IMG/VR virus record: IMGVR_UViG_3300045391_000045
Coordinates: 1 to 64,000 of that record
DNA: 64,000 nt
Reading direction: 5' to 3' (one strand)
From: a virus
In this document: positions 3,732 to 43,595 of the stretch, piece by piece
Position numbering within the stretch: position 1 is the stretch's first letter
Layout of the letters: each line of letters begins with the position of its first letter
Translations under genes and position numbers: made by a program
The notes under the pieces: model-generated
Seen by the model: only the letters and a program-made list of their open reading frames with translations
Databases searched by the model: none
What the model was told of the DNA's origin: nothing

Positions 3732-4216
3732 AGGTAGGAATTACTGGACATAGACCAGAGCGTCTTGAGGACCATGAAGATGCTGTTAAAGAGCTTATAT
3801 CAGAAGCACTTCAGCAATTGAATGCCACCCGTCTTTATCAGGGAATGGCTGCTGGTGTTGACCTTTGGTCTGCTAAAGAAGCATGGAAGCTAAAGATTCC
3901 TTATGCTGCCGTGAAGCCTTGGGCTGGACATAAGCCAAGAGTAGCAGACCGTATTGAGTATGCTAAGGTTCTTAAGCACGCTACCGCAATTATTGATGTT
4001 GACCCATCAATCGAATACCCAGGAGCTTGGGTATACAACAAGCGAAATGAATTTATTGTTGATGAGGTGGGCACGATGATTGCCGTTTGGGATGGAAAGC
4101 CATACGGAGGTACATACAACTGCATCGAATACGCGTGGAAGAAGGCAATCCCAGTTTTGAGGATTGACCCTGAAGAAAGGGTTATTGAATATGTCAGCGA
4201 AGAAGTACCTTTCTAA
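3728..4216 (+). CDS. SLOG/DUF1273-DUF2493-like protein (VGITGHRP motif)
   Basis: N-terminal KVGITGHRP motif typical of YpsA/SLOG-type phage proteins. Confidence 0.4.
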   Translation: MKVGITGHRPERLEDHEDAVKELISEALQQLNATRLYQGMAAGVDLWSAKEAWKLKIPYAAVKPWAGHKPRVADRIEYAKVLKHATAIIDVDPSIEYPGAWVYNKRNEFIVDEVGTMIAVWDGKPYGGTYNCIEYAWKKAIPVLRIDPEERVIEYVSEEVPF

Positions 4217-4276
4217 GGCTTGGCTTTATAGGCAATTTGTAGTCTTGAAAAGAGATGCTGATGCAATCGCAGAGGA

Positions 4277-4981
4277 ATGCGGGGTAAATCGAAGAACGAT
4301 TTATCGAAAACTAGAAGATTTTGGAATCGTAAAGAAAAGATGATTGACAGATACAAGTATACAATCTTTAGCGTAGATGATTCTAGAGCGCACTATATTG
4401 AAAAGATGCGCCCTGTGCTTTCAAGTTTTATGGATGAAGTAGAAACATATTGTGTTGATGGCAGAATTCCAGAAGAGCTAAAGAAAGCACAAGAAAAGCA
4501 TCCATATGAAGTGAAATATGATGCGAAGGTTGGACAGCTAGGAATCTGGTACACTGTGCTCAATGCGCTGGAGAATGCGCCAATCCTGACTCTAGAAGAT
4601 GATGCGCTGCTGCATGAAAACTTCCCAGATAGGTTCGGATGGAATATCAGAGAGTGGCAGCACGATACCGACTTCTTCTCTTTGTTCCTTCCACGAGATA
4701 GTGACCATCTTTATGACGAAAATAGAGATAGGATAGGCCACTACACTTGTCGAACGTATCAGAGATACGGCGGGGTATCTATGTATTACACAAAGCAGGG
4801 TGCTGAAAAGATTAAGGCTTTGCTTGAAAGAGATGGAATTACAGGACAGTACGATGATACATTGTACGCATACTCTAAGGCTGGTGAGCTTAACGGTTAT
4901 TGCTCAATCCCATCACTACCTGACCTAGTTTATATCACAGGTCTAGAAGACAGTATCGTTCAGGAGACGGAATACGCATGA
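4277..4981 (+). CDS. putative glycosyltransferase (GT25-like), start uncertain (possibly 4338)
   Basis: ORF track; weak resemblance to LPS glycosyltransferase family; adjacent to GT2-like gene. Confidence 0.4.
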   Translation: MRGKSKNDLSKTRRFWNRKEKMIDRYKYTIFSVDDSRAHYIEKMRPVLSSFMDEVETYCVDGRIPEELKKAQEKHPYEVKYDAKVGQLGIWYTVLNALENAPILTLEDDALLHENFPDRFGWNIREWQHDTDFFSLFLPRDSDHLYDENRDRIGHYTCRTYQRYGGVSMYYTKQGAEKIKALLERDGITGQYDDTLYAYSKAGELNGYCSIPSLPDLVYITGLEDSIVQETEYA

Positions 4982-5634
4982 GAATTTTGGTTATTGTGCC
5001 TACTCGCGGTAGGCCAGACAATATCGTTCGACTCGACAGGGCGATGCTTGACACACAGGTTGATGTTGAGGTAATGTACTGTGTTGACGAGGACGACCCA
5101 AGTCTTGCAGATTATGTGAGAACTGGAATCCCGCTGGTTATTGGAACACGAAAGAGGCTTGTTGGAACACTGAATGATGTTGCCAAAAGATTTGCTGACG
5201 ATTATGATATCATCGGTTTCCTTGGTGACGATGTTGTTCCTCGTACAATGAGGTGGGACAATGCTATCCGTGACAACTTCAAGCCAAATATGGTAGCCTA
5301 TGGAAATGATGGCCACCAGCGCGAGGGACTTCCAACCGGGGTGTTCCTTGACGCACGAATCGTAAGTGTGCTAGGGTACATGGTAGTTCCAACGCTGATT
5401 CACCTCTTCGCAGATAATTATTGGAAGACTCTTGGTGAAGCACTTGGTACGCTTACATACTTGCCAGATATTGACTTGGAGCACATGCATCCGTATGCTG
5501 GTAAGGCAGACCACGACCAAACTTATGCCGAAGCAAATTCAGGTCCCGTATGGGAACATGATGAAAAGGCATTCAGGTGGTACGTGGAAAACGAACTAGC
5601 ATTTGATGTGGAGATTCTAAGTCTAAATGAGTAA
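4978..5634 (+). CDS. glycosyltransferase family 2-like
   Basis: N-terminal RILVIVPTRGRPDN motif typical of GT-A fold glycosyltransferases; DDD acidic motif. Confidence 0.55.
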   Translation: MRILVIVPTRGRPDNIVRLDRAMLDTQVDVEVMYCVDEDDPSLADYVRTGIPLVIGTRKRLVGTLNDVAKRFADDYDIIGFLGDDVVPRTMRWDNAIRDNFKPNMVAYGNDGHQREGLPTGVFLDARIVSVLGYMVVPTLIHLFADNYWKTLGEALGTLTYLPDIDLEHMHPYAGKADHDQTYAEANSGPVWEHDEKAFRWYVENELAFDVEILSLNE

Positions 5635-7315: not shown

Positions 7316-7868
7316 TATCGATGGCGTAATGTACGATTTCGCTGAATCGCTTCGCCAATACATGAGGTACTTTGGTTATGACAAGAAGTATAAGATGTGT
7401 GAGGGTGAAGTCAGCGAATGGTACTTTTACCGTCATTGGGGCATGACAGACAGTGAGTTCGTAAACCACTGTCACAAGGGTGTGGACGCAGGGTTCGTCT
7501 TTGCCCACGGAGGCACCCGTGACAATTCTTCTGACGCTGTGAGATTTGTGAAGGACCTAGGTCACTCGGTTCATATCATCACGGACAGAAGTTTTGGTAG
7601 CACCCCTGAACGGTCCCACTTTGCCACTAGGCAGTGGCTCTATCTGAACGACATTCCGTATGATACGATTGACTTCTCTGCTGACAAGACGTGTCGAGAG
7701 ACTGACATGTTCATTGAGGACAAGTTGGAGAACTATGATGCACTTGTAGCGGCGGGTGTAGACTGCTACCTTGTAAACAGGCCATGGAACATGGTTCCTG
7801 GAGATGACAGGAAGCGTATCAAGAGTATCCAAGAGTATGCTACAATTATTGGAAATCTTAGTGTTTGA
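7299..7868 (+). CDS. HAD-family 5'(3')-deoxyribonucleotidase
   Basis: N-terminal GFDIDGV (DxDxV HAD motif I). Confidence 0.6.
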   Translation: MRVGFDIDGVMYDFAESLRQYMRYFGYDKKYKMCEGEVSEWYFYRHWGMTDSEFVNHCHKGVDAGFVFAHGGTRDNSSDAVRFVKDLGHSVHIITDRSFGSTPERSHFATRQWLYLNDIPYDTIDFSADKTCRETDMFIEDKLENYDALVAAGVDCYLVNRPWNMVPGDDRKRIKSIQEYATIIGNLSV

Positions 7869-13749: not shown

Positions 13750-13868
13750 TCGGGTCGGCTGGATGAGGGTTATCTAACCTAAACAATTATACAGTCAATG
13801 GTAATTCCTGGTGGATTCCAGGGAGTGTGGTGACTATAACACCTCTCCCTCGCCAATAACATATCCGA
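13750..13868 (+). ncRNA. Y RNA-like / YrlA-related repeat unit a (GGGTCGG...TTATCTAAC...ACATATCCG), precedes tRNA-Ile
   Basis: shares 5' GGGTCGG, internal GGTTATCTAAC and 3' ACATATCCG motifs with six other units; multiple hairpins; Ro60 gene nearby. Confidence 0.45.
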
Positions 13869-13874
13869 AAACAA

Positions 13875-13949
13875 TGGGGTATAGCTCGGTCTGGTTAGAG
13901 CATTCCGCTGATAACGGAACGGTCGTCGGTTCAAATCCGACTGCCCCAA
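13875..13949 (+). tRNA. tRNA-Ile (anticodon GAT)
   Basis: D-stem GCTC/GAGC, anticodon arm TTCCG-CTGATAA-CGGAA, T-arm GTCGG-TTCAAAT-CCGAC, acceptor TGGGGTA/TGCCCCA. Confidence 0.6.
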
Positions 13950-13953
13950 CTTT

Positions 13954-14089
13954 ATGGGTCGGATTCAGTAGTTTAACTTAAATCCAAACCGCGTGTCCTA
14001 GGTTCGAATCCTAGTCCCGGCTTTCTTGTCGGGGTAGCTCAGTGGCAGAGCAGTGGTCCTTAAAAAACACTATTGAAACAACATATCCA
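13954..14089 (+). ncRNA. Y RNA-like (YrlA-like) unit b with permuted tRNA-like module (T-arm + 3' acceptor, 5-nt loop, 5' acceptor + D-arm)
   Basis: 13988-14022 ACCGC-GTGTC-CTAGG-TTCGAAT-CCTAG-TCCCGGC followed at 14028 by GTCGGGG-TA-GCTC-AGTGGCA-GAGC-A-GTGGT; acceptor halves pair 7/7, GTGGT pairs ACCGC 5/5. Confidence 0.55.
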
Positions 14090-14107
14090 TTAAATAACTT
14101 AAAATTT

Positions 14108-14249
14108 GCGGGTCGGAAGAATTCAGTTATCTTTCTACCACAAACAATCAGAAAACCGCAGGTTCGACTCCTCGGAGGGATGAATGTGAGAGGTCACAGC
14201 TAGGCATGAAGCTTAGTGAATCCAGCTTCTGAATTCTATAATATATCCG
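14108..14249 (+). ncRNA. Y RNA-like repeat unit c (degenerate T-arm-like element GGTTCGACTCC)
   Basis: 5' GGGTCGG, 3' ATATATCCG, internal ACCGC-AGGTTCGACTCC. Confidence 0.35.
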
Positions 14250-14257
14250 CAAAAGCT

Positions 14258-14355
14258 TTGGGTCGGATGAAGACGTTTATCGTAAGTTCAACTCTTATCA
14301 TCCCCCCTCATGGGGATGGGGCGTGGTGCCCACTCGTTTTCTACAACATACCCAT
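14258..14355 (+). ncRNA. Y RNA-like repeat unit d, precedes tRNA-Ser
   Basis: 5' GGGTCGGATG, hairpins ATCCCC-CCTCAT-GGGGAT and GGGC-GTGGT-GCCC, 3' ACATACCC. Confidence 0.35.
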
Positions 14356-14358
14356 TAT

Positions 14359-14445
14359 GGAAGGTCAATCCGATTGGCGACGGAACTTGTCTTGAAAACA
14401 AGCGAGGTGTGAAAGCCCTTAGGAGTTCGACTCTCCTACCTTCCG
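14359..14445 (+). tRNA. tRNA-Ser (anticodon TGA)
   Basis: acceptor GGAAGGT/ACCTTCC perfect, anticodon arm CTTGT-CTTGAAA-ACAAG, long variable arm, T-arm AGGAG-TTCGACT-CTCCT. Confidence 0.6.
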
Positions 14446-14730
14446 CTTTACCCTAAGGAGTAAAATTGACTGAGACAGAGAATGTCGGTCCTACATCGTA
14501 TCAGCTAGCAATCATCCTTGCACTTCAGAGCAAGCATGTATACGCTAACACAGTTAGTTACGATGAGATTGCACGACGACGTAAGGCAAGCAAGCGAGCG
14601 CGGCTACAGCGCAGAACAAACAGAAGGCTTGACACGACACGTCGCTCGTGATAAGGTTTTATTAGATGGTCGGCAAGCAGGGAAGAGAAGGCTACAGGAG
14701 CTTGAGCAACAACACCTTCCACCATCACAT

Positions 14731-15052: not shown

Positions 15053-15114
15053 TCGGGTCGGATGTAATTGCTTATCTATTATGGGAATAAAACGCGATTA
15101 CTCTAACATATCCG
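15053..15114 (+). ncRNA. Y RNA-like repeat unit e (short)
   Basis: GGGTCGGATG...TTATCTATT...ACATATCCG. Confidence 0.3.
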
Positions 15115-15139
15115 TTCTAAACTTCTAGCCCTAACAATT

Positions 15140-15263
15140 TCGGGTCGGAGTTTCTTGGTTACCTTACTATGCATGAGAAGTTGTCGGTTCGAATCCGGCC
15201 GGGTCCATTCATGGGCCTGTAGTTTAATTGGCAAAACTTACACCGAGGAACGTTTCATATCCG
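15140..15263 (+). ncRNA. Y RNA-like (YrlA-like) unit f with permuted tRNA-like module
   Basis: 15183-15207 GTCGG-TTCGAAT-CCGGC-CGGGTCC-A, loop TTCAT, then 15213 GGGCCTG-TA-GTTT-AATTGGCA-AAAC; acceptor halves pair 7/7 with wobbles; bounded by GGGTCGG and CATATCCG. Confidence 0.5.
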
Positions 15264-15306
15264 TCTTAATTGTTAGGGCTAAGCTTTTGTCTAGAAAAGG
15301 AGAGAC

Positions 15307-15933: not shown

Positions 15934-17550
15934 ATGTCTAATGCACTTGGTAAGTTTGCTGCTTCTCAGAAGCAGGAGCGCGTTGCTACGCCTCAGACAA
16001 AGCGTACCCCTGGTCGTACGGATGAGGTCAAGAACAACGCGGGCGGGTTTGTGTTCAAGGTAGACGACAAGTCTCGTCTTGAGCGCTTCCTGGTGTTGGG
16101 TACTGACAAGGGTACCTATTACGTTGGTGAGCAGAAGTTGACGGCTCAGAACATTTCCTTCCTGAAGGAGATGGTCCGTAAGGATGAGCGTCTGGTCGTG
16201 GACACTGCTGTTGACGTCTCTGTAAACGCTCGTGCGCTTAAGAATTCTCCTGCGCTGTTCGCTATGGCTCTGGTCATGACGGAGGGCAAGGACAAGGCTT
16301 ACGCTCGTGAGGCCGTACAGAAGGTTGCTCGTACGTCTACCCACCTTTTCGAGTACGCACAGTACATCGATGACCTGGGTGGTTGGGGTCGAGCAAAGCG
16401 TCGTTCTGTCGCTGAGTGGTACGAGAACAAGTCTATCGATGCGCTTGCGTATCAGGCTGTGAAGTACCGTCAGAGGAACGGTTGGACGCACCGTGACCTT
16501 TTCCGTCTTGCTCACCCTCAGGGTGTAGACCAGGGTGTTGGTAACTTCATCCTTGGCAAGGACGTTGAGGCTGAGGTGGAAATTCTTAAGGGCTTCGCTG
16601 CAATGCAGTCTGCGACTTCGGTCAAGGATGTTATTCGCACGCTGGAGACTTTCAAGAACCTTCCTTGGGAGACCATCCCTACTCAGTTCCTCAAGGATGT
16701 GAAGGTCTGGAAGACTCTGTTCTACAACGGTCAGCTTCGTGGCCAGGCTCTCATTCGCAACATTACTCGACTCGCTCGAATTGGTGCGTTTGATGACATG
16801 GTTTTCGCAACTGACTACGCGAACGCAATTGCTAACCAGGAAATGATTCAGAAGACTCGTCTTCACCCAATCAACTTCCTGAATGCGGTTGTTGTTCACG
16901 AGAGTGGACAGATTGACCGTAACGGTTACAGCATGTGGAGTGCCGGACGTAAGAAGGATTGGAAGTCTAACGGAAAGATTGTGGATGCTCTCAATGAGGG
17001 ATTCCACATGGCATTCAAGACTGTCGAGCCTTCTGGCAAGAGGACTCTGGTTGCGACTGACGTGTCTGGCTCAATGAGTCAGGCTGCCATCGGACTTGAC
17101 CTCTCTTGTGCTCAGGTTTCTGCGGCTGTTGCTATGACGGTTGCGCGTTCCGAGCCTTACAGTGACATTGTTGGCTTCTCTAGCAGCATTGTTGACTTGG
17201 GCATTACCGCTAAGAGTTCTTTTGCCGACGCAATGCGTAAGGTGAGTAACAGGAACTTTGGTGGTACGGATGCGGCTGCTGCAATTAAGTACGCTAACCA
17301 GAAGGGAATTCAGGTTGACACCTTCGTAGTTATCACTGATAACGAGACGTGGGGCGGAAGCCAGAAGCCTTTCCAGGCACTTAAGCAGTACCGTCAGAAG
17401 ACCGGAATTGATGCGCGTCTTGCGGTTCTCGGTGTGGCGTCTACGGACTTCACCATCGCTGACCCTACGGACCGTGGAATGATGGACTTCGTTGGTTTCG
17501 ATGCAAATGCGCCTAAGGCCCTCGCGGACTTCAGCGCTGGTCGTATCTGA
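15934..17550 (+). CDS. rsr: Ro60-like ribonucleoprotein (TROVE domain + C-terminal vWA/MIDAS)
   Basis: 538 aa; TROVE-like N-terminal region; MIDAS motif VATDVSGSM...TD; RBS AAAGGATTAGAAAAATG. Confidence 0.8.
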   Translation: MSNALGKFAASQKQERVATPQTKRTPGRTDEVKNNAGGFVFKVDDKSRLERFLVLGTDKGTYYVGEQKLTAQNISFLKEMVRKDERLVVDTAVDVSVNARALKNSPALFAMALVMTEGKDKAYAREAVQKVARTSTHLFEYAQYIDDLGGWGRAKRRSVAEWYENKSIDALAYQAVKYRQRNGWTHRDLFRLAHPQGVDQGVGNFILGKDVEAEVEILKGFAAMQSATSVKDVIRTLETFKNLPWETIPTQFLKDVKVWKTLFYNGQLRGQALIRNITRLARIGAFDDMVFATDYANAIANQEMIQKTRLHPINFLNAVVVHESGQIDRNGYSMWSAGRKKDWKSNGKIVDALNEGFHMAFKTVEPSGKRTLVATDVSGSMSQAAIGLDLSCAQVSAAVAMTVARSEPYSDIVGFSSSIVDLGITAKSSFADAMRKVSNRNFGGTDAAAAIKYANQKGIQVDTFVVITDNETWGGSQKPFQALKQYRQKTGIDARLAVLGVASTDFTIADPTDRGMMDFVGFDANAPKALADFSAGRI

Positions 17551-17602: not shown

Positions 17603-18550
17603 ATGTTCATGTATAATGATGCGTATGTAACATACGAGCAAAGAGTAAATCACGAATATAAGGATGTTTATGCTGATGCATTTTCGCCACCATATCAGAT
17701 GCTTGGTAGCGCTAGCATTGTCCACATCCTGAACGTTCGTAGTCTGGATGTTGAAGTTACAGTGACCGCTGAGACTGGCTACGGTTTTTCTCAGGCTGTC
17801 GTAATGTCGTGCCTAGCTGCTGCCGTCAAAAATATTGACGATGGCTACCTTTACACTCTGGTCCGCAAGAGGATTGAGAATCAGATGGGGTTCGAGCTTG
17901 ACGATTTTATTCCGGCCGGGGTTGCTAATCCAACCGACGTAGACCATTCTATTGATGGAACACATTGGAGATTCAACGTAATTGCAAGTCTGAATCACAA
18001 GTATGTTCGGAGACCAAAGTTCGAGCTTATCAAGAATGAGCATCAGTTCGGAATGGTCGAGATGAGGTTGAATTACTATTCTGGAGTACATCCCGGTCAC
18101 ATTAGTCTTCTGATTGAAGAGGGTGTTATCGCAGAAAGCGATTGGAATTCAGTTGAACATGCTCAGATGATGCTTTGGTATAAGGCTTATGAAGAGATGC
18201 CAATGCTTGCACCAGACCTATCCTACATGAGGTATACAGAAGGATTGCTAAACGGAAGTAAGTATCACACGGGCGGGTATTATGTTGATGCCCCCAATAA
18301 GGCACCAAACTTCTCAGGACCACTTGCCAAGCCTGCTGTTTCAGGGTATGGTAAGGATAGTAGGGTCAATGAGTTGCCGGGTGTGAAGGAAATGGTTACA
18401 CATCCGCTAAGTAAGCAAAAGATGACTCTTGAACGTGCTATCATTAGTCTTAATGACCAGCACAAGTGGACAAGGGAACAAATCGCGGATTGGCTTGAAA
18501 CCCTTGACATTGACATTACATTTAAGGTGAATACAGATGAACAAGATTGA
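17603..18550 (+). CDS. hypothetical protein adjacent to Ro60
   Basis: 315 aa ORF after hairpin-CAAGCTT-AAAGGAG; no recognisable motif. Confidence 0.5.
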   Translation: MFMYNDAYVTYEQRVNHEYKDVYADAFSPPYQMLGSASIVHILNVRSLDVEVTVTAETGYGFSQAVVMSCLAAAVKNIDDGYLYTLVRKRIENQMGFELDDFIPAGVANPTDVDHSIDGTHWRFNVIASLNHKYVRRPKFELIKNEHQFGMVEMRLNYYSGVHPGHISLLIEEGVIAESDWNSVEHAQMMLWYKAYEEMPMLAPDLSYMRYTEGLLNGSKYHTGGYYVDAPNKAPNFSGPLAKPAVSGYGKDSRVNELPGVKEMVTHPLSKQKMTLERAIISLNDQHKWTREQIADWLETLDIDITFKVNTDEQD

Positions 18551-18912: not shown

Positions 18913-18990
18913 GCCCCAGTATCGCCACTGGCTTCTAACCAGTCGTTAACAGCGTAATGGAGTATGCAGGTTCGAATCCTGTCTGGGGTA
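18913..18990 (+). tRNA. atypical tRNA-like gene (anticodon TCT, Arg) with 5-nt D region and 22-nt variable arm
   Basis: acceptor GCCCCAG/CTGGGGT, anticodon arm ACTGG-CTTCTAA-CCAGT, T-arm GCAGG-TTCGAAT-CCTGT; no D-arm can be folded. Confidence 0.4.
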
Positions 18991-19327: not shown

Positions 19328-19370
19328 GAATAATATGGATGGTAGGATACTCCTAAGAAGGTTTAGGAGG

Positions 19371-19937
19371 ATGAAAATGCCTAAGAGAAAGTTTTTCTAT
19401 GATACCGAGTTTCACGAAGATGGTAAAACTATTGATTTGATTTCAATTGCTATGGTTCGTGGAGACGGTAAGGAATATTATGCTGTATCATCTGATGCGG
19501 ATTACAAGCGGGTTTTTGAGAACAGTTGGTTGATGAATCATGTTATGAATACAATCGACCATGTTGTTGTTGAAGACCATCACGGTGGCGGATATACAAT
19601 TATCCCAAAGGGTCCTTTCGTAAGAACCAGAGAACAAATCCGTGATGAAATCCTTGAATTCGTAATGGAAAGTCAGGATGAATTTAACGACCCTCATGGT
19701 GAGGCAAAGGCTGAGTTGTGGGCATGGTATGCTGACTATGACCACGTAGCACTTTGTCAACTGTTTGGTAAGATGATTGACCTTCCAACAGGTTTCCCTA
19801 TGTTTACTAGAGATTTGAGGCAGCATTGGGAGTATAAGGGATATCCTGAGCTTCCAAGACAAGACGATGGTGAACACAACGCACTTGACGATGCACGTCA
19901 CAACCTGGTAATGTATAACTACATGGAAGGTCTGTGA
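19371..19937 (+). CDS. DEDDh 3'-5' exonuclease (RNase T / oligoribonuclease-like)
   Basis: FFYDTEF (Exo I), HNALDDARHN (Exo III with His); RBS AGGAGG. Confidence 0.6.
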   Translation: MKMPKRKFFYDTEFHEDGKTIDLISIAMVRGDGKEYYAVSSDADYKRVFENSWLMNHVMNTIDHVVVEDHHGGGYTIIPKGPFVRTREQIRDEILEFVMESQDEFNDPHGEAKAELWAWYADYDHVALCQLFGKMIDLPTGFPMFTRDLRQHWEYKGYPELPRQDDGEHNALDDARHNLVMYNYMEGL

Positions 19938-24386: not shown

Positions 24387-24665
24387 GGGGTAGCTTGGTT
24401 TCGACTTTGCTGGACGGGATATAAACGCAACCCTTCTTGGTCAAAGAAGTAAAACGGGCCAACCAAATAAATGCAAACTCTATGAATGCATCTGCTTTCG
24501 CTCTAGCAGCGTAAAAGCCGGGTTTGTCGGGAACCTAGGAACAGAATCCCGACTAGTACAAAATGTGTAGATAATGTGTAAGACCCTTCAGTGTGATTGA
24601 CAATGGTTGTAGAACGGTTATATGCTAGATAGTAAAGGACGCGGGTTCGACTCCCGCCTACTCCA
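24387..24665 (+). ncRNA. ssrA: tmRNA (ssrA), tag ANSMNASAFALAA
   Basis: 5' GGGGTAGCTTGGTTTCGAC...GGACGGGAT like tmRNA 5' end; in-frame tag GCA AAC TCT ATG AAT GCA TCT GCT TTC GCT CTA GCA GCG TAA (24473-24514); 3' T-arm GCGGG-TTCGACT-CCCGC + acceptor CTACTCC pairing GGGGTAG. Confidence 0.8.
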
Positions 24666-24676
24666 CACAGAAAGAT

Positions 24677-28817: not shown

Positions 28818-29885
28818 ATGGTACACGTTTCGAAGATTTTCTCGCTCGATGCGTTGCAGAAGGATATCGATGCGGGATTGGTACGTTCACAGGTAAATGA
28901 GGATGGGACGCTCCGCATTTACAATTACACCGAAGAGGTTCAGTACAAGCGAATGTGGAATGACGTTACGCTGAATTGTCGTGGCCTTATTCTCGACAAT
29001 TACATGCACGTTGTTGCTCGTCCATGGAAGAAGTTCTTCAATTTCGGTGAGCGTCCTCTTCTATTCAGCACTGACACTCCGGTTGAGGTGACTGACAAGA
29101 AGGATGGTTCATTGGGTATTCTTTATCGTCACCCAATGACCGGGGATTACCGAATTGCAACTCGTGGCTCTTTCTTGTCTGACCAGGCTATTCACGCTAC
29201 AAAGGTCTGGGACAACAAGTACAGCCACATCGCACAGCCTTGGGATGGAGTTACATTCCTGTTTGAGATTGTGTACCCTGACAATCGCATTGTGCTGGAT
29301 TACGGTGAGCTTGATGACCTAATCTTGCTGGGTGCCGTTCACAATCAGTATGGATGGTACTACGGTCCGAACGAGGCTGCTGGGATGCTCAACTGGACTG
29401 GTCCTGTCACTGAGGTCTTTGAGTACCGGACCACGAACGACTGCTTCAAGGTGCACCGTTCAAATGCTGAGGGTCTGGTAATTCGGGCCGGTAGCGAGAT
29501 GGTCAAGTTGAAGCAGGAGGACTACGTGGCTTTGCACAAGCTAGTCACAGGTCTGAACGAGCGTGCTGTATGGGAGCGCTTGAAGGCAGGCGAGACACGT
29601 GATAGTATCTGTGCATCGCTTCCCGATGAGTTCCACGGATTTGTTGACAAGGTTGCGGATGAGCTAGAGACAAAGTTCAACGAGATTTACCACAGTTCCC
29701 ACGTGGATTACTGTAAGGTGTTGAACATAATGCCTGGCAAATCAAGCATGAGTAAGGCAGACTGGCGTAAGATGTTCGCATCGCACGCTGTTAAGATGCC
29801 TAACTACGACTTGATTTTCAACTACCTTGACAACCGTCCGGTACAGGAGTCTATTTGGAAAATGATTCGTCCTAAGGGCGAGTAA
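28818..29885 (+). CDS. ATP-dependent RNA ligase, Rnl1-like
   Basis: nucleotidyltransferase motif I VTDKKDGSLG (KxDG), 355 aa. Confidence 0.65.
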   Translation: MVHVSKIFSLDALQKDIDAGLVRSQVNEDGTLRIYNYTEEVQYKRMWNDVTLNCRGLILDNYMHVVARPWKKFFNFGERPLLFSTDTPVEVTDKKDGSLGILYRHPMTGDYRIATRGSFLSDQAIHATKVWDNKYSHIAQPWDGVTFLFEIVYPDNRIVLDYGELDDLILLGAVHNQYGWYYGPNEAAGMLNWTGPVTEVFEYRTTNDCFKVHRSNAEGLVIRAGSEMVKLKQEDYVALHKLVTGLNERAVWERLKAGETRDSICASLPDEFHGFVDKVADELETKFNEIYHSSHVDYCKVLNIMPGKSSMSKADWRKMFASHAVKMPNYDLIFNYLDNRPVQESIWKMIRPKGE

Positions 29886-37571: not shown

Positions 37572-38348
37572 ATGTCCAAGATTATGATTCTGGGCGACGT
37601 TCACGGTGAGACAAAGTGGCTGGTGAACATGATTAACAAGGCCAGTCGAATGGGCGTCAAGAAGATTCTCCAGGTTGGAGATTTCGGAATCTGGACTCAT
37701 GAGGCTGAGGGACACCGGTTCCTTGACCGCGCAAATGAGGAGCTTCGTAAGCATGGCATTAAGCTCTATTTCGTTGGCGGCAATCATGAGAACTGGGACC
37801 ACCTGAATTGGCACGAGAAGAATGGTGCTAAGGACTGGAATGGTCACACATTTATTCGGTCTCACATTCTTTACACTGGTCGGGTGAATCGCTGGACCTG
37901 GGGTGAGAAGGGTGAGGAGAAGGTCTTTCAGGCTGTTGGTGGTGCCTTTTCAATTGACCGGCGTCGGCGGGTTGTTGGAAAGACTCTCTGGCTTGATGAG
38001 GAGATTCCTGACCGGGTTGTTTATGGTCTGGAGAAGGCTGGTCGGAAGTGTGATTACCTTTTCACGCATGATGGTCCTAGCTGTCTTCCATTCGCAAATC
38101 TGAAGCCTGATATCGACTCTGATATGCACCGGCAGAAGATGGACCGAATTGGGCGGGCTACTCGGCCTAATCTTTGGTTCCACGGTCACTATCACAAGTG
38201 GATGGAGTACAGCTTTATGCACCAGGAGGGTTATTCCTTCGTGTATGGGCTTGACCGGGACTATCAGTTCTACTCTTACGCCATTCTTGATACTGCATCT
38301 GGTGACGTTGAGACTGCAACTGGTAAGATTATCGAGCACGGAAACTGA
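37572..38348 (+). CDS. calcineurin-like metallophosphoesterase (Ser/Thr phosphatase-like or 2',3'-phosphoesterase)
   Basis: GDVHG, GDFG, GNHE motifs. Confidence 0.65.
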   Translation: MSKIMILGDVHGETKWLVNMINKASRMGVKKILQVGDFGIWTHEAEGHRFLDRANEELRKHGIKLYFVGGNHENWDHLNWHEKNGAKDWNGHTFIRSHILYTGRVNRWTWGEKGEEKVFQAVGGAFSIDRRRRVVGKTLWLDEEIPDRVVYGLEKAGRKCDYLFTHDGPSCLPFANLKPDIDSDMHRQKMDRIGRATRPNLWFHGHYHKWMEYSFMHQEGYSFVYGLDRDYQFYSYAILDTASGDVETATGKIIEHGN

Positions 38349-43493: not shown

Positions 43494-43595
43494 TCGGGTC
43501 GATTGGATAGGGTTATCTAACAATCAATTGGTGATGAGCCTTCGGGCAACCCTGCGGCGGGTATAGCCGCATCTCCCTTCCTCAACATATCCGAT
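43494..43595 (+). ncRNA. Y RNA-like repeat unit g (GGGTCG...GGGTTATCTAACAATCAATTGG...ACATATCCG), precedes tRNA-Gly
   Basis: same terminal motifs as units a-f; internal UUAUCU-AA-UCAAUUG resembles the loop of vertebrate Y RNAs. Confidence 0.4.

Follow-up and report, generated by a model that had tools for sequence, protein, structure and literature searches.

A probable YrlA-class Y RNA with a circularly permuted tRNA-like module upstream of Ro60 in a Streptomyces phage

Why would a phage genome carry the two halves of a tRNA in reversed order? The question is raised by a 64,000-nucleotide stretch of viral DNA (positions 1 to 64,000 of the IMG/VR virus record IMGVR_UViG_3300045391_000045; hereafter the window), which derives from a Gilsonvirus-like (cluster BE) Streptomyces phage and is 86–91% identical in this region to Gilson, Comrade, Karp and others. 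At 13988–14057 on the + strand, the 3′ half of a tRNA-like sequence precedes its 5′ half. This permuted module lies within a 137-nt element, unit b, one of seven related units (a–g) interleaved with tRNA genes, and a Ro60 gene follows downstream on the same strand. We conclude that unit b is very probably a Y RNA of the YrlA class, serving as noncoding partner to the phage’s own Ro60. Unit b consists of two modules, a scaffold built from its 5′ and 3′ ends and a circularly permuted tRNA effector module, with the following elements (R1 is a covariance model of relatives, described below):

13954–14090, + strand: unit b, YrlA-class Y RNA-like gene, 137 nt (shared ends 13956–14088), recognized by fold, Rfam YrlA and R1
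13954–13959, + strand: terminal helix, 5′ strand AUGGGU, 6 bp with 14085–14090
13956–13963, + strand: 5′ motif GGGUCGGA, putative Ro60-contact strand, common to all seven units
13964–13972, + strand: helix 2, 5′ strand UUCAGUAGU, 9 bp with 14069–14077
13973–13977, + strand: UUAAC, corresponding to the UUAYC/YUAY motif at the start of the YrlA variable region
13988–13992, + strand: anticodon-like stem, 3′-half strand ACCGC, partner of 14053–14057
13993–13997, + strand: variable loop GUGUC, final base C48, partnering G15
13998–14014, + strand: T arm CUAGG-UUCGAAU-CCUAG, from sequence, YrlA alignment and minimum free energy (MFE) fold
14015–14034, + strand: acceptor-like hairpin, 7 bp UCCCGGC/GUCGGGG, loop UUUCUU, without CCA
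14015–14021, + strand: acceptor 3′ strand TCCCGGC
14022–14027, + strand: acceptor-closing loop TTTCTT, 6 nt
14028–14034, + strand: acceptor 5′ strand GTCGGGG, followed by TA
14037–14051, + strand: D arm GCUC-AGUGGCA-GAGC (A14, G15, G18, G19, A21), followed by A
14053–14057, + strand: anticodon-like stem, 5′-half strand GUGGU
14069–14077, + strand: helix 2, 3′ strand ACUAUUGAA
14085–14090, + strand: terminal helix, 3′ strand AUCCAU, within the common ACAUAUCC end (14081–14088)

An earlier, sequence-only reading had proposed the permuted module and likened it to bacterial YrlA Y RNAs, and every segment that it quoted lies where it had been placed. The two acceptor strands pair at 7/7 positions (two G-U), the anticodon-like strands ACCGC and GUGGU at 5/5 (one G-U), and the T loop UUCGAAU with its G53-C61 closing pair, the D loop AGUGGCA and U8 are all present. 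The acceptor stem is indeed closed by a loop, which however comprises 6 nt when the T after GGC is counted, and not the five of the pentaloop originally described. The MFE fold of 13952–14092 reproduces all proposed helices and adds a weak helix of 4 bp, the 9-bp helix 2 and the 6-bp terminal helix. The anticodon stem had been expected to extend into one long helix in which the GGGTCGG and ACATATCC ends pair; the extension exists, but internal loops divide it into three helices, and the Ro60-type motif sits in one of these loops. ARAGORN, which called 32 tRNAs and a one-piece transfer-messenger RNA (tmRNA, 24387–24668) across the window, found no tRNA at unit b in the native order, in agreement with the claim that a standard tRNA fold fails here, whereas it called one after the halves had been exchanged and linked through a dummy anticodon loop. 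The description as a permuted tRNA is therefore accurate.

A permuted tRNA gene could yield a working tRNA if its transcript were circularized and reopened at the acceptor loop, as in Cyanidioschyzon merolae. The order of the halves, the tRNA score of the swapped sequence, the 7-bp acceptor stem and a G at +1 would all suit such a gene, yet the anticodon-like stem runs into conserved helices, neither an anticodon loop nor any 7-nt loop is present, bulge-helix-bulge motif and CCA are missing, and bacteria have no splicing endonuclease pathway. In addition, BE2-type relatives lack the acceptor hairpin, which is incompatible with a tRNA product, and we give this explanation hardly any credence. 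Permuted tRNA genes and two-piece tmRNAs resemble unit b in placing the 3′ half before the 5′ half and in an initially closed acceptor stem, but they mature into products with a free CCA, whereas unit b is devoid of anticodon loop, CCA and tag reading frame. A two-piece tmRNA was likewise rejected: unit b has a full D arm and no tag frame, a normal tmRNA is encoded elsewhere in the window, and a permuted-tmRNA model found no match on unit b at E up to 10 and only 16 bits on unit f.

Among the Rfam families searched at permissive thresholds (E up to 10), YrlA (RF02553) is the only non-tRNA family matching unit b. The match spans 13965–14079 from end to end of the model with 29 bits, and its T, acceptor and D elements coincide with the arms of unit b. 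A second match was obtained on unit f (15142–15262, 28.5 bits). With whole-window E-values of 0.038 (unit b) and 0.051 (unit f), each match is marginal by itself, and both lie on the Ro60 strand, 1.1 kb apart and <2 kb upstream of Ro60. Against a chance match speak the second, independent YrlA match, the position of both matches upstream of Ro60, and covariation (see below) that far exceeds that of controls. The presumed protein partner is encoded as follows:

15934–17550, + strand: Ro60/Rsr ortholog, 538 aa (Pfam TROVE 3e-37, vWA_Ro60 5e-56)

The 538-aa open reading frame (ORF) matches Deinococcus radiodurans Rsr (2nvo) over its full length (7e-100) and is also strongly similar to human and Xenopus Ro60. 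It starts 1.85 kb from unit b and 0.67 kb from unit f on the same strand, an arrangement kept in relatives. The scaffold of unit b comprises the 6-bp terminal helix, an internal loop with GGGUCGGA and the 9-bp helix 2, and is common to the seven paralogs. Published YrlA RNAs carry a GNCGAAN0-1G motif near the 5′ end and a YUAY motif opening the variable (V) region, and the vertebrate strand contacted by Ro60 reads GGUCCGA (PMC4201824). The GGGUCGGA strand is one base off the published GNCGAA, and its GGUCGGA core is identical to the vertebrate sequence at 6/7 positions.

The covariance model R1 was seeded with 14 b and f units from Stanwilliamsviridae phages and searched against 47 loci fetched by similarity to the region or to Ro60 (38 from IMG/VR; Ro60 identity 97%–36%). 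Unit b, itself a seed member, scores 116 bits. Full-length matches from outside the seed were found just upstream of Ro60 in four contigs with 37–63% Ro60 identity (L023, 79.7 bits; L039, 73.9; L011, 64.6; L037, 58.7), and further non-seed matches in L021 (70 bits), L036 (43.4) and BE2-type loci (~48). Streptomyces phage BRock, which belongs to a different genus, yielded 62.9 and 60.7 bits, and mycobacteriophage Bxz1 64.5. Across the 37 best matches, in an alignment fitted to the model and including the seed sequences, standard pairs occupy 98.4% of cells, compared with 29–48% when partners are slid by 1–3 columns; 20/22 pairs have changed on both sides, and 0/500 shuffles reach the observed values. 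Broken down by helix, the terminal helix is 95.5% paired with compensatory changes in 5/6 pairs, the T stem 100% (4/5), the acceptor stem 99% (7/7) and the D stem 100% (4/4). Plain MAFFT alignment shows the same changes, for instance CUAGG/CCUAG to AUAGG/CCUAU in the T stem and GUCGGGG/UCCCGGC to GUCCAGG/CCUGGGC in the acceptor stem.

Covariation extends to the tertiary structure and to the remaining helices. The Levitt pair is G15 with C48 in 7/7 sequences from three lineages, unit b included, and A15 with U48 in 22, while two of the sequences that have an acceptor hairpin deviate; a compensatory 15:48 pattern has been published for YrlA (PMC4201824). In b orthologs the anticodon-like stem is paired 5/5 in three lineages (the window, L024, L021) and reduced to 4/5 by a central mismatch in five others, and its swaps include G-C to C-G, G-C to U-A and U-A to A-U. 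Across lineages, the 3′ strand of helix 2 was beyond the reach of MAFFT alignment, and per-sequence duplex tests with cross-lineage controls were used instead: at least six different helix 2 sequences occur among b orthologs, each matched by its own partner. The YrlA architecture claimed by the sequence-only reading is thus borne out by the Rfam match, the downstream same-strand Ro60, the covarying arms, the closing helices and the 15:48 pair; the fold and covariance search that it had suggested as a check reproduced its helices and gave the 29-bit YrlA match.

The same reading had named two findings that would speak against it, a lack of compensatory changes in relatives and a pair of decayed tandem tRNA pseudogenes. 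Compensatory changes are abundant, and the second does not fit either. Two decayed tRNAs in a row, leaving the 3′ half of the first and the 5′ half of the second, would be at home in a dense tRNA array, and a dimeric tRNA origin of YrlA has been discussed (10.1101/312249), but the acceptor strands pair 7/7 with all 7 pairs compensatory, no tRNA in the window resembles the halves (best 33/65), and conservation of the module reaches from Streptomyces phages as far as Bxz1. Decayed pseudogenes are therefore a most improbable account of unit b, although tandem tRNAs may be its ancient origin.

Several observations weigh against unit b as a YrlA-class partner of Ro60. Its 29 bits fall short of the RF02553 gathering score of 69, which is a curators’ threshold rather than a biological definition. 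With the same Rfam model, the Bxz1 RNA scores 32.5 bits and the RNAs of BRock and three metagenomic phages 31–36 bits, all below the gathering score; since every tested phage RNA of this kind fails, the sub-threshold score reflects the reach of the Rfam model and not the nature of the RNA. The MFE z-score of unit b is weak (−1.75 to −1.98), and the pair counts given above come from a model-fitted alignment that contains the seed. The 5′ motif is GUCGGA instead of the published GNCGAA: unit b reads GUCGGAUUCAG, one transition from GNCGAAN0-1G, and all six clustered units read GUCGG. Its orthologs read GUCGAAUG in Blueeyedbeauty and Annadreamy and GGGUCGAAUG in sister genera, unit g reads GUCGAUUGG, and distant model matches carry GUCGAA or GCCGAA, an exact fit to the published motif. 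Similarly, the YUAY position is UUAA in unit b; UUAU or UUAC stands there in b orthologs outside Gilsonvirus and in the other six units. Other Y-like units, two tRNAs and small ORFs intervene between unit b and Ro60. Finally, Comrade (L010) is without units b and c while a, d, e, f and Ro60 are kept, which implies that unit b is dispensable when unit f is present, and Annadreamy (L047) keeps b and c though Ro60 is gone from the syntenic site. At that site, a deletion that looks recent has removed the 3′ part of unit f, starting at its middle, along with Ro60 and the gene after it.

YrlA RNAs adjoin Ro60 in >250 bacteria and phages, are modified by TruB and DusA, and are cut by RNase P if the acceptor stem is 7 bp (Chen 2014; PMC4201824), and the YrlA crystal structure led to their description as “circularly permuted tRNAs” (Wang 2018; 10.1101/312249). 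The YrlA RNAs of Salmonella Typhimurium and Mycobacterium smegmatis (RF02553; PDB 6cu1) share with unit b a nearby Ro60 on the same strand, ends that form the Ro60-binding stem, the order of V region, T arm, loop-closed acceptor stem and D arm, the canonical elbow nucleotides and a covarying 15:48 pair; the M. smegmatis RNA also has a 7-bp acceptor stem. Unit b differs in its 29-bit score, in GUCGGA replacing GNCGAA, in being one of seven paralogs, and in its position within a tRNA array upstream of Ro60 instead of an rsr-yrlBA-rtcBA operon. Among phages, YrlA has been reported from mycobacteriophages (PMC4201824, PMC12135203), and the main text of PMC4201824 names no Streptomyces phage. The RNA of Bxz1-type (cluster C) mycobacteriophages, presumably the published phage YrlA, gave the 64.5-bit R1 match over its full length (L049, 2699–2839), 160 nt upstream of the gp220 Ro60. 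Like the window, Bxz1 is a large tRNA-rich phage with a tmRNA and a sub-threshold Rfam YrlA score (32.5 bits); it differs in one detected unit at the locus versus seven here, a GC content of 60% versus 45%, and a Ro60 with 40% identity.

Several phage Y-like RNAs upstream of a phage Ro60 are also found in Thermus phage phiLo (Yrl1/Yrl2 and phiRo60), whose Ro60 binds phage Y-like RNAs and host PNPase in vitro (PMC12135203). There, Ro60 binding and ternary complexes with host PNPase were demonstrated by experiment. The phiLo RNAs are described as stem-bulge-stem structures with a CGAA motif and no reported tRNA-like domain, and number two instead of seven. Y RNAs of metazoa and D. radiodurans Yrn1 have in common with unit b a Ro60-binding stem made from the ends, with a GGUCCGA-like strand (GGUCGGA here), and an effector module. 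Metazoan Y RNAs are nevertheless without a tRNA-like fold, and in Yrn1 the T-like and D-like elements occur in another order and orientation.

The remaining units and the tRNAs flanking the b-c-d run are located as follows:

13752–13866, + strand: unit a, Y-like without tRNA-like module, ending 8 nt before tRNA-Ile; aligned with unit g and orthologs
13875–13950, + strand: tRNA-Ile(gat), 3′ end ~5 nt before unit b
14110–14248, + strand: unit c, T-arm-like hairpin GGUUCGACUCC and a different two-hairpin domain (R1 26 bits)
14260–14353, + strand: unit d, three hairpins in T/acceptor/D order with degenerate loops (R1 31.7 bits, E 0.0014)
14359–14446, + strand: tRNA-Ser(tga), 3′ boundary of the b-c-d run
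15055–15113, + strand: unit e, minimal 59-nt scaffold with a small loop, of YrlB-like size
15126–15139, + strand: stem bracketing unit f, 5′ arm, paired with 15268–15281
15142–15262, + strand: unit f, second full tRNA mimic (YrlA 28.5 bits, fold, compensatory changes in orthologs)
15183–15199, 15200–15219 and 15221–15238, + strand: T arm, 8-bp acceptor hairpin and D arm of unit f
15268–15281, + strand: stem bracketing unit f, 3′ arm, followed by AAGCUUUUGU
43496–43592, + strand: unit g, seventh Y-like paralog GGGUCGAUUGG...ACAUAUCC, like unit a (R1 19.2 bits)

All seven units share a 5′ GGGUCG(G/A), UUAYC after the 5′ strand of helix 2 (UUAAC in b) and a 3′ (A)CAUAUCC, and all fold with a terminal helix made by these common ends. 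Helix 2 has a sequence unique to each of units a–f, yet its two strands match within every unit: when duplex energies are compared in a 6x6 table, the diagonal entry is best in every row and column. The inner modules are diverse, with full tRNA mimics in b and f, a degenerate one in d, a T-arm-like hairpin plus another domain in c, a further type in a and g, and a minimal loop in e. With a shared, presumably Ro60-binding stem and a variable effector part, the units follow the modular layout of Y RNAs. Compensatory changes affect 16/36 predicted pairs of unit c. For unit d, RNAalifold prefers a local hairpin to helix 2, and the G-C to C-G swap that keeps its long-range helix was seen by eye and is weak evidence from six near-identical sequences. 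Folding energies favor the + over the − strand for all seven units, with small margins except for unit f, and the strand assignment rests on the T and D loop motifs and on co-orientation with Ro60 rather than on these energies. Unit g stands 26 kb downstream of Ro60; its motif, GUCGA, is closer to the canonical form, and 9 nt separate the 3′ end of the unit from tRNA-Gly(tcc).

Alone among the units, unit f is enclosed by the arms of a perfect inverted repeat of 14 bp, after which AAGCTTTTGT follows. At least five lineages (Gilson, SparkleGoddess, Sham/TunaTartare/Faust, L024 and Blueeyedbeauty) have preserved this clamp through compensatory changes; it may be a site for RNase III, a longer lower stem or a structure resembling a terminator. 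Units a, b, d and g lie within 5–9 nt of tRNA ends, with unit d ending 5 nt before tRNA-Ser. This spacing and the RNase III-like clamp, along with the published RNase P cleavage of YrlA with a 7-bp stem and the Annadreamy units that persist without Ro60 at the syntenic site, would suit a role of the units as mere processing punctuation (RNase P, RNase Z or RNase III sites) in a tRNA-rich transcript, with no part for Ro60. BillNye, of the same subfamily, speaks against it. In its 127 kb there is neither Ro60 (best tblastn E 2.2) nor an R1 match >20 bits, and the tRNA-Ile, tRNA-Ser and tRNA-Asp genes of BillNye (L045, L051–L053) stand back to back, 3–10 nt apart. As the same tRNAs are packed there without units, tRNA processing is independent of the units. 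A Ro60-type 5′ motif in 7/7 units, and the same type of RNA directly upstream of Ro60 in unrelated phages that have no tRNA array there (e.g., Bxz1), also disagree with a pure punctuation role, which we consider unlikely by a wide measure.

A decoy function independent of Ro60 would have the mimics bait host tRNA-binding toxins or defence nucleases that recognize the elbow or the acceptor stem. The elbow nucleotides are complete, and with 32 tRNAs, a tmRNA and a T4 Rnl1-type ligase (28818–29885) the phage invests heavily in tRNA supply and repair. However, a module without anticodon loop is no bait for anticodon nucleases, only some paralogs are tRNA-like whereas all have the Ro60-type scaffold, and presence of the units tracks Ro60; we judge the decoy explanation to be very improbable.

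For unit b as a YrlA-class Y RNA, we infer both Ro60 binding and an effector role from the behavior of the family. Ro60 would use its outer surface to bind the scaffold strand GGGUCGGA, and the tRNA mimic would adopt the L-shaped fold seen in crystals of YrlA, to be recognized by host tRNA enzymes through TruB and Dus-type (DusA) modification. The mimic might then act as a handle that tethers or gates Ro60 toward an effector, most plausibly the host 3′–5′ exonuclease PNPase, so that structured-RNA decay or quality control would be retuned in a host expressing 32 phage tRNAs and a tmRNA. With its 7-bp acceptor stem, unit b may be a substrate for RNase P and CCA addition, as in M. smegmatis. Because units lie 5–9 nt from tRNA ends, release by tRNA-end processing is suggested, and the Y RNAs are probably excised by the respective enzymes from a polycistronic tRNA/Y-RNA transcript. 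Around the array, scans for promoters and terminators counted no more of them than in shuffled sequence.

A more far-reaching and rather doubtful proposal is that the seven modular Y RNAs combine one Ro60 scaffold with different effectors, each directing the single Ro60 to another partner or substrate, which would make Ro60 a programmable RNA-surveillance hub by which the phage manages or protects its own tRNA pool. Here, the tRNA machinery would release the members, and RNase P would open unit b for CCA addition as in M. smegmatis. The literature already describes YrlA RNAs with their permuted-tRNA architecture, also from phages. New is an unannotated instance in Streptomyces phages, and the sole aspect beyond the published descriptions consulted is the set of seven modular paralogs interleaved with tRNA genes in one 64-kb window. 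Lytic Streptomyces phages with natural deletion variants (Comrade, Annadreamy, BillNye) offer a tractable system for the role of viral Ro60-Y RNA complexes.

Recognizing these genes corrects tRNA counts and reveals phage members that escape the curated Rfam model. Ten inspected GenBank records annotate no Y RNA, and nothing at all is annotated there between tRNA-Ile and tRNA-Ser; one cluster-BE genome paper lists a Ro-like protein and mentions no Y RNA. At least two relatives carry a tRNA label on part of this RNA. In Sham (L003), a 62-nt “tRNA-Ser(cga)” at 4971–5032 lies inside the unit f ortholog (R1 match 4963–5093), and in Blueeyedbeauty (L005) a “tRNA-His(gtg)” at 4985–5057 lies inside another (R1 match 4982–5121). 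Both appear to be the 5′ half and T arm of a Y RNA miscalled as tRNA. Other tRNA labels nearby in Sham look shifted relative to relatives. Ro60 itself is annotated as “Ro-like RNA binding protein” in several relatives and as plain “RNA-binding protein” in others, and Ro60 homologs occur in 358 phage records of the searched collection, 115 of them from Streptomyces phages. Directly 3′ of Ro60 lies a conserved 315-aa ORF (17603–18550, + strand), which is deleted along with Ro60 in Annadreamy and has no match in Pfam or PHROG.

The start of unit a (GGGUCGG...CUGGAUGAG) had also been considered as a hammerhead- or hepatitis delta virus (HDV)-like ribozyme. This reading was dropped, as searches with E up to 10 matched no Rfam ribozyme family and the motif belongs to the common Y-RNA scaffold. 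Elsewhere in the tRNA region, a sequence directly after tRNA-Arg(gcg) (18913–18990, + strand) scores 34.2 bits with the Rfam tRNA model, above its gathering score, and is not called by ARAGORN; its acceptor stem and T arm are good, its D/anticodon region odd. Besides the Rnl1-type RNA ligase, RNA-metabolism genes of this region include a calcineurin-like phosphoesterase (37572–38348) and an Rv2179c-like 3′–5′ exoribonuclease (19335–19937; RNase H in the annotation of relatives). The three genes are possible functional neighbors of the Ro60 system.

Y RNAs of BE2/Karimacvirus-type loci (L014, L018–L020, L022, L041, ~4100–4240), also upstream of Ro60, have the scaffold and the T and D arms and no acceptor hairpin; A15 faces G48 in these RNAs, which represent a distinct variant of the tRNA-like module. 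BRock (L006) carries four tandem unannotated Y-like units upstream of Ro60 (4955–5440), the first and last of which are tRNA mimics, with shared ends of their own (CGAUGCG...UUACUUC and CUUUUWCUAG). Flanked by two tRNA-Lys genes, a manA RNA match (7610–7773, 49.7 bits versus a gathering score of 55.2) is present in the same phage, and the metagenomic phage contig L039 contains a match resembling a small signal recognition particle (SRP) RNA at 1846–1939 (36.4 bits versus a gathering score of 40).

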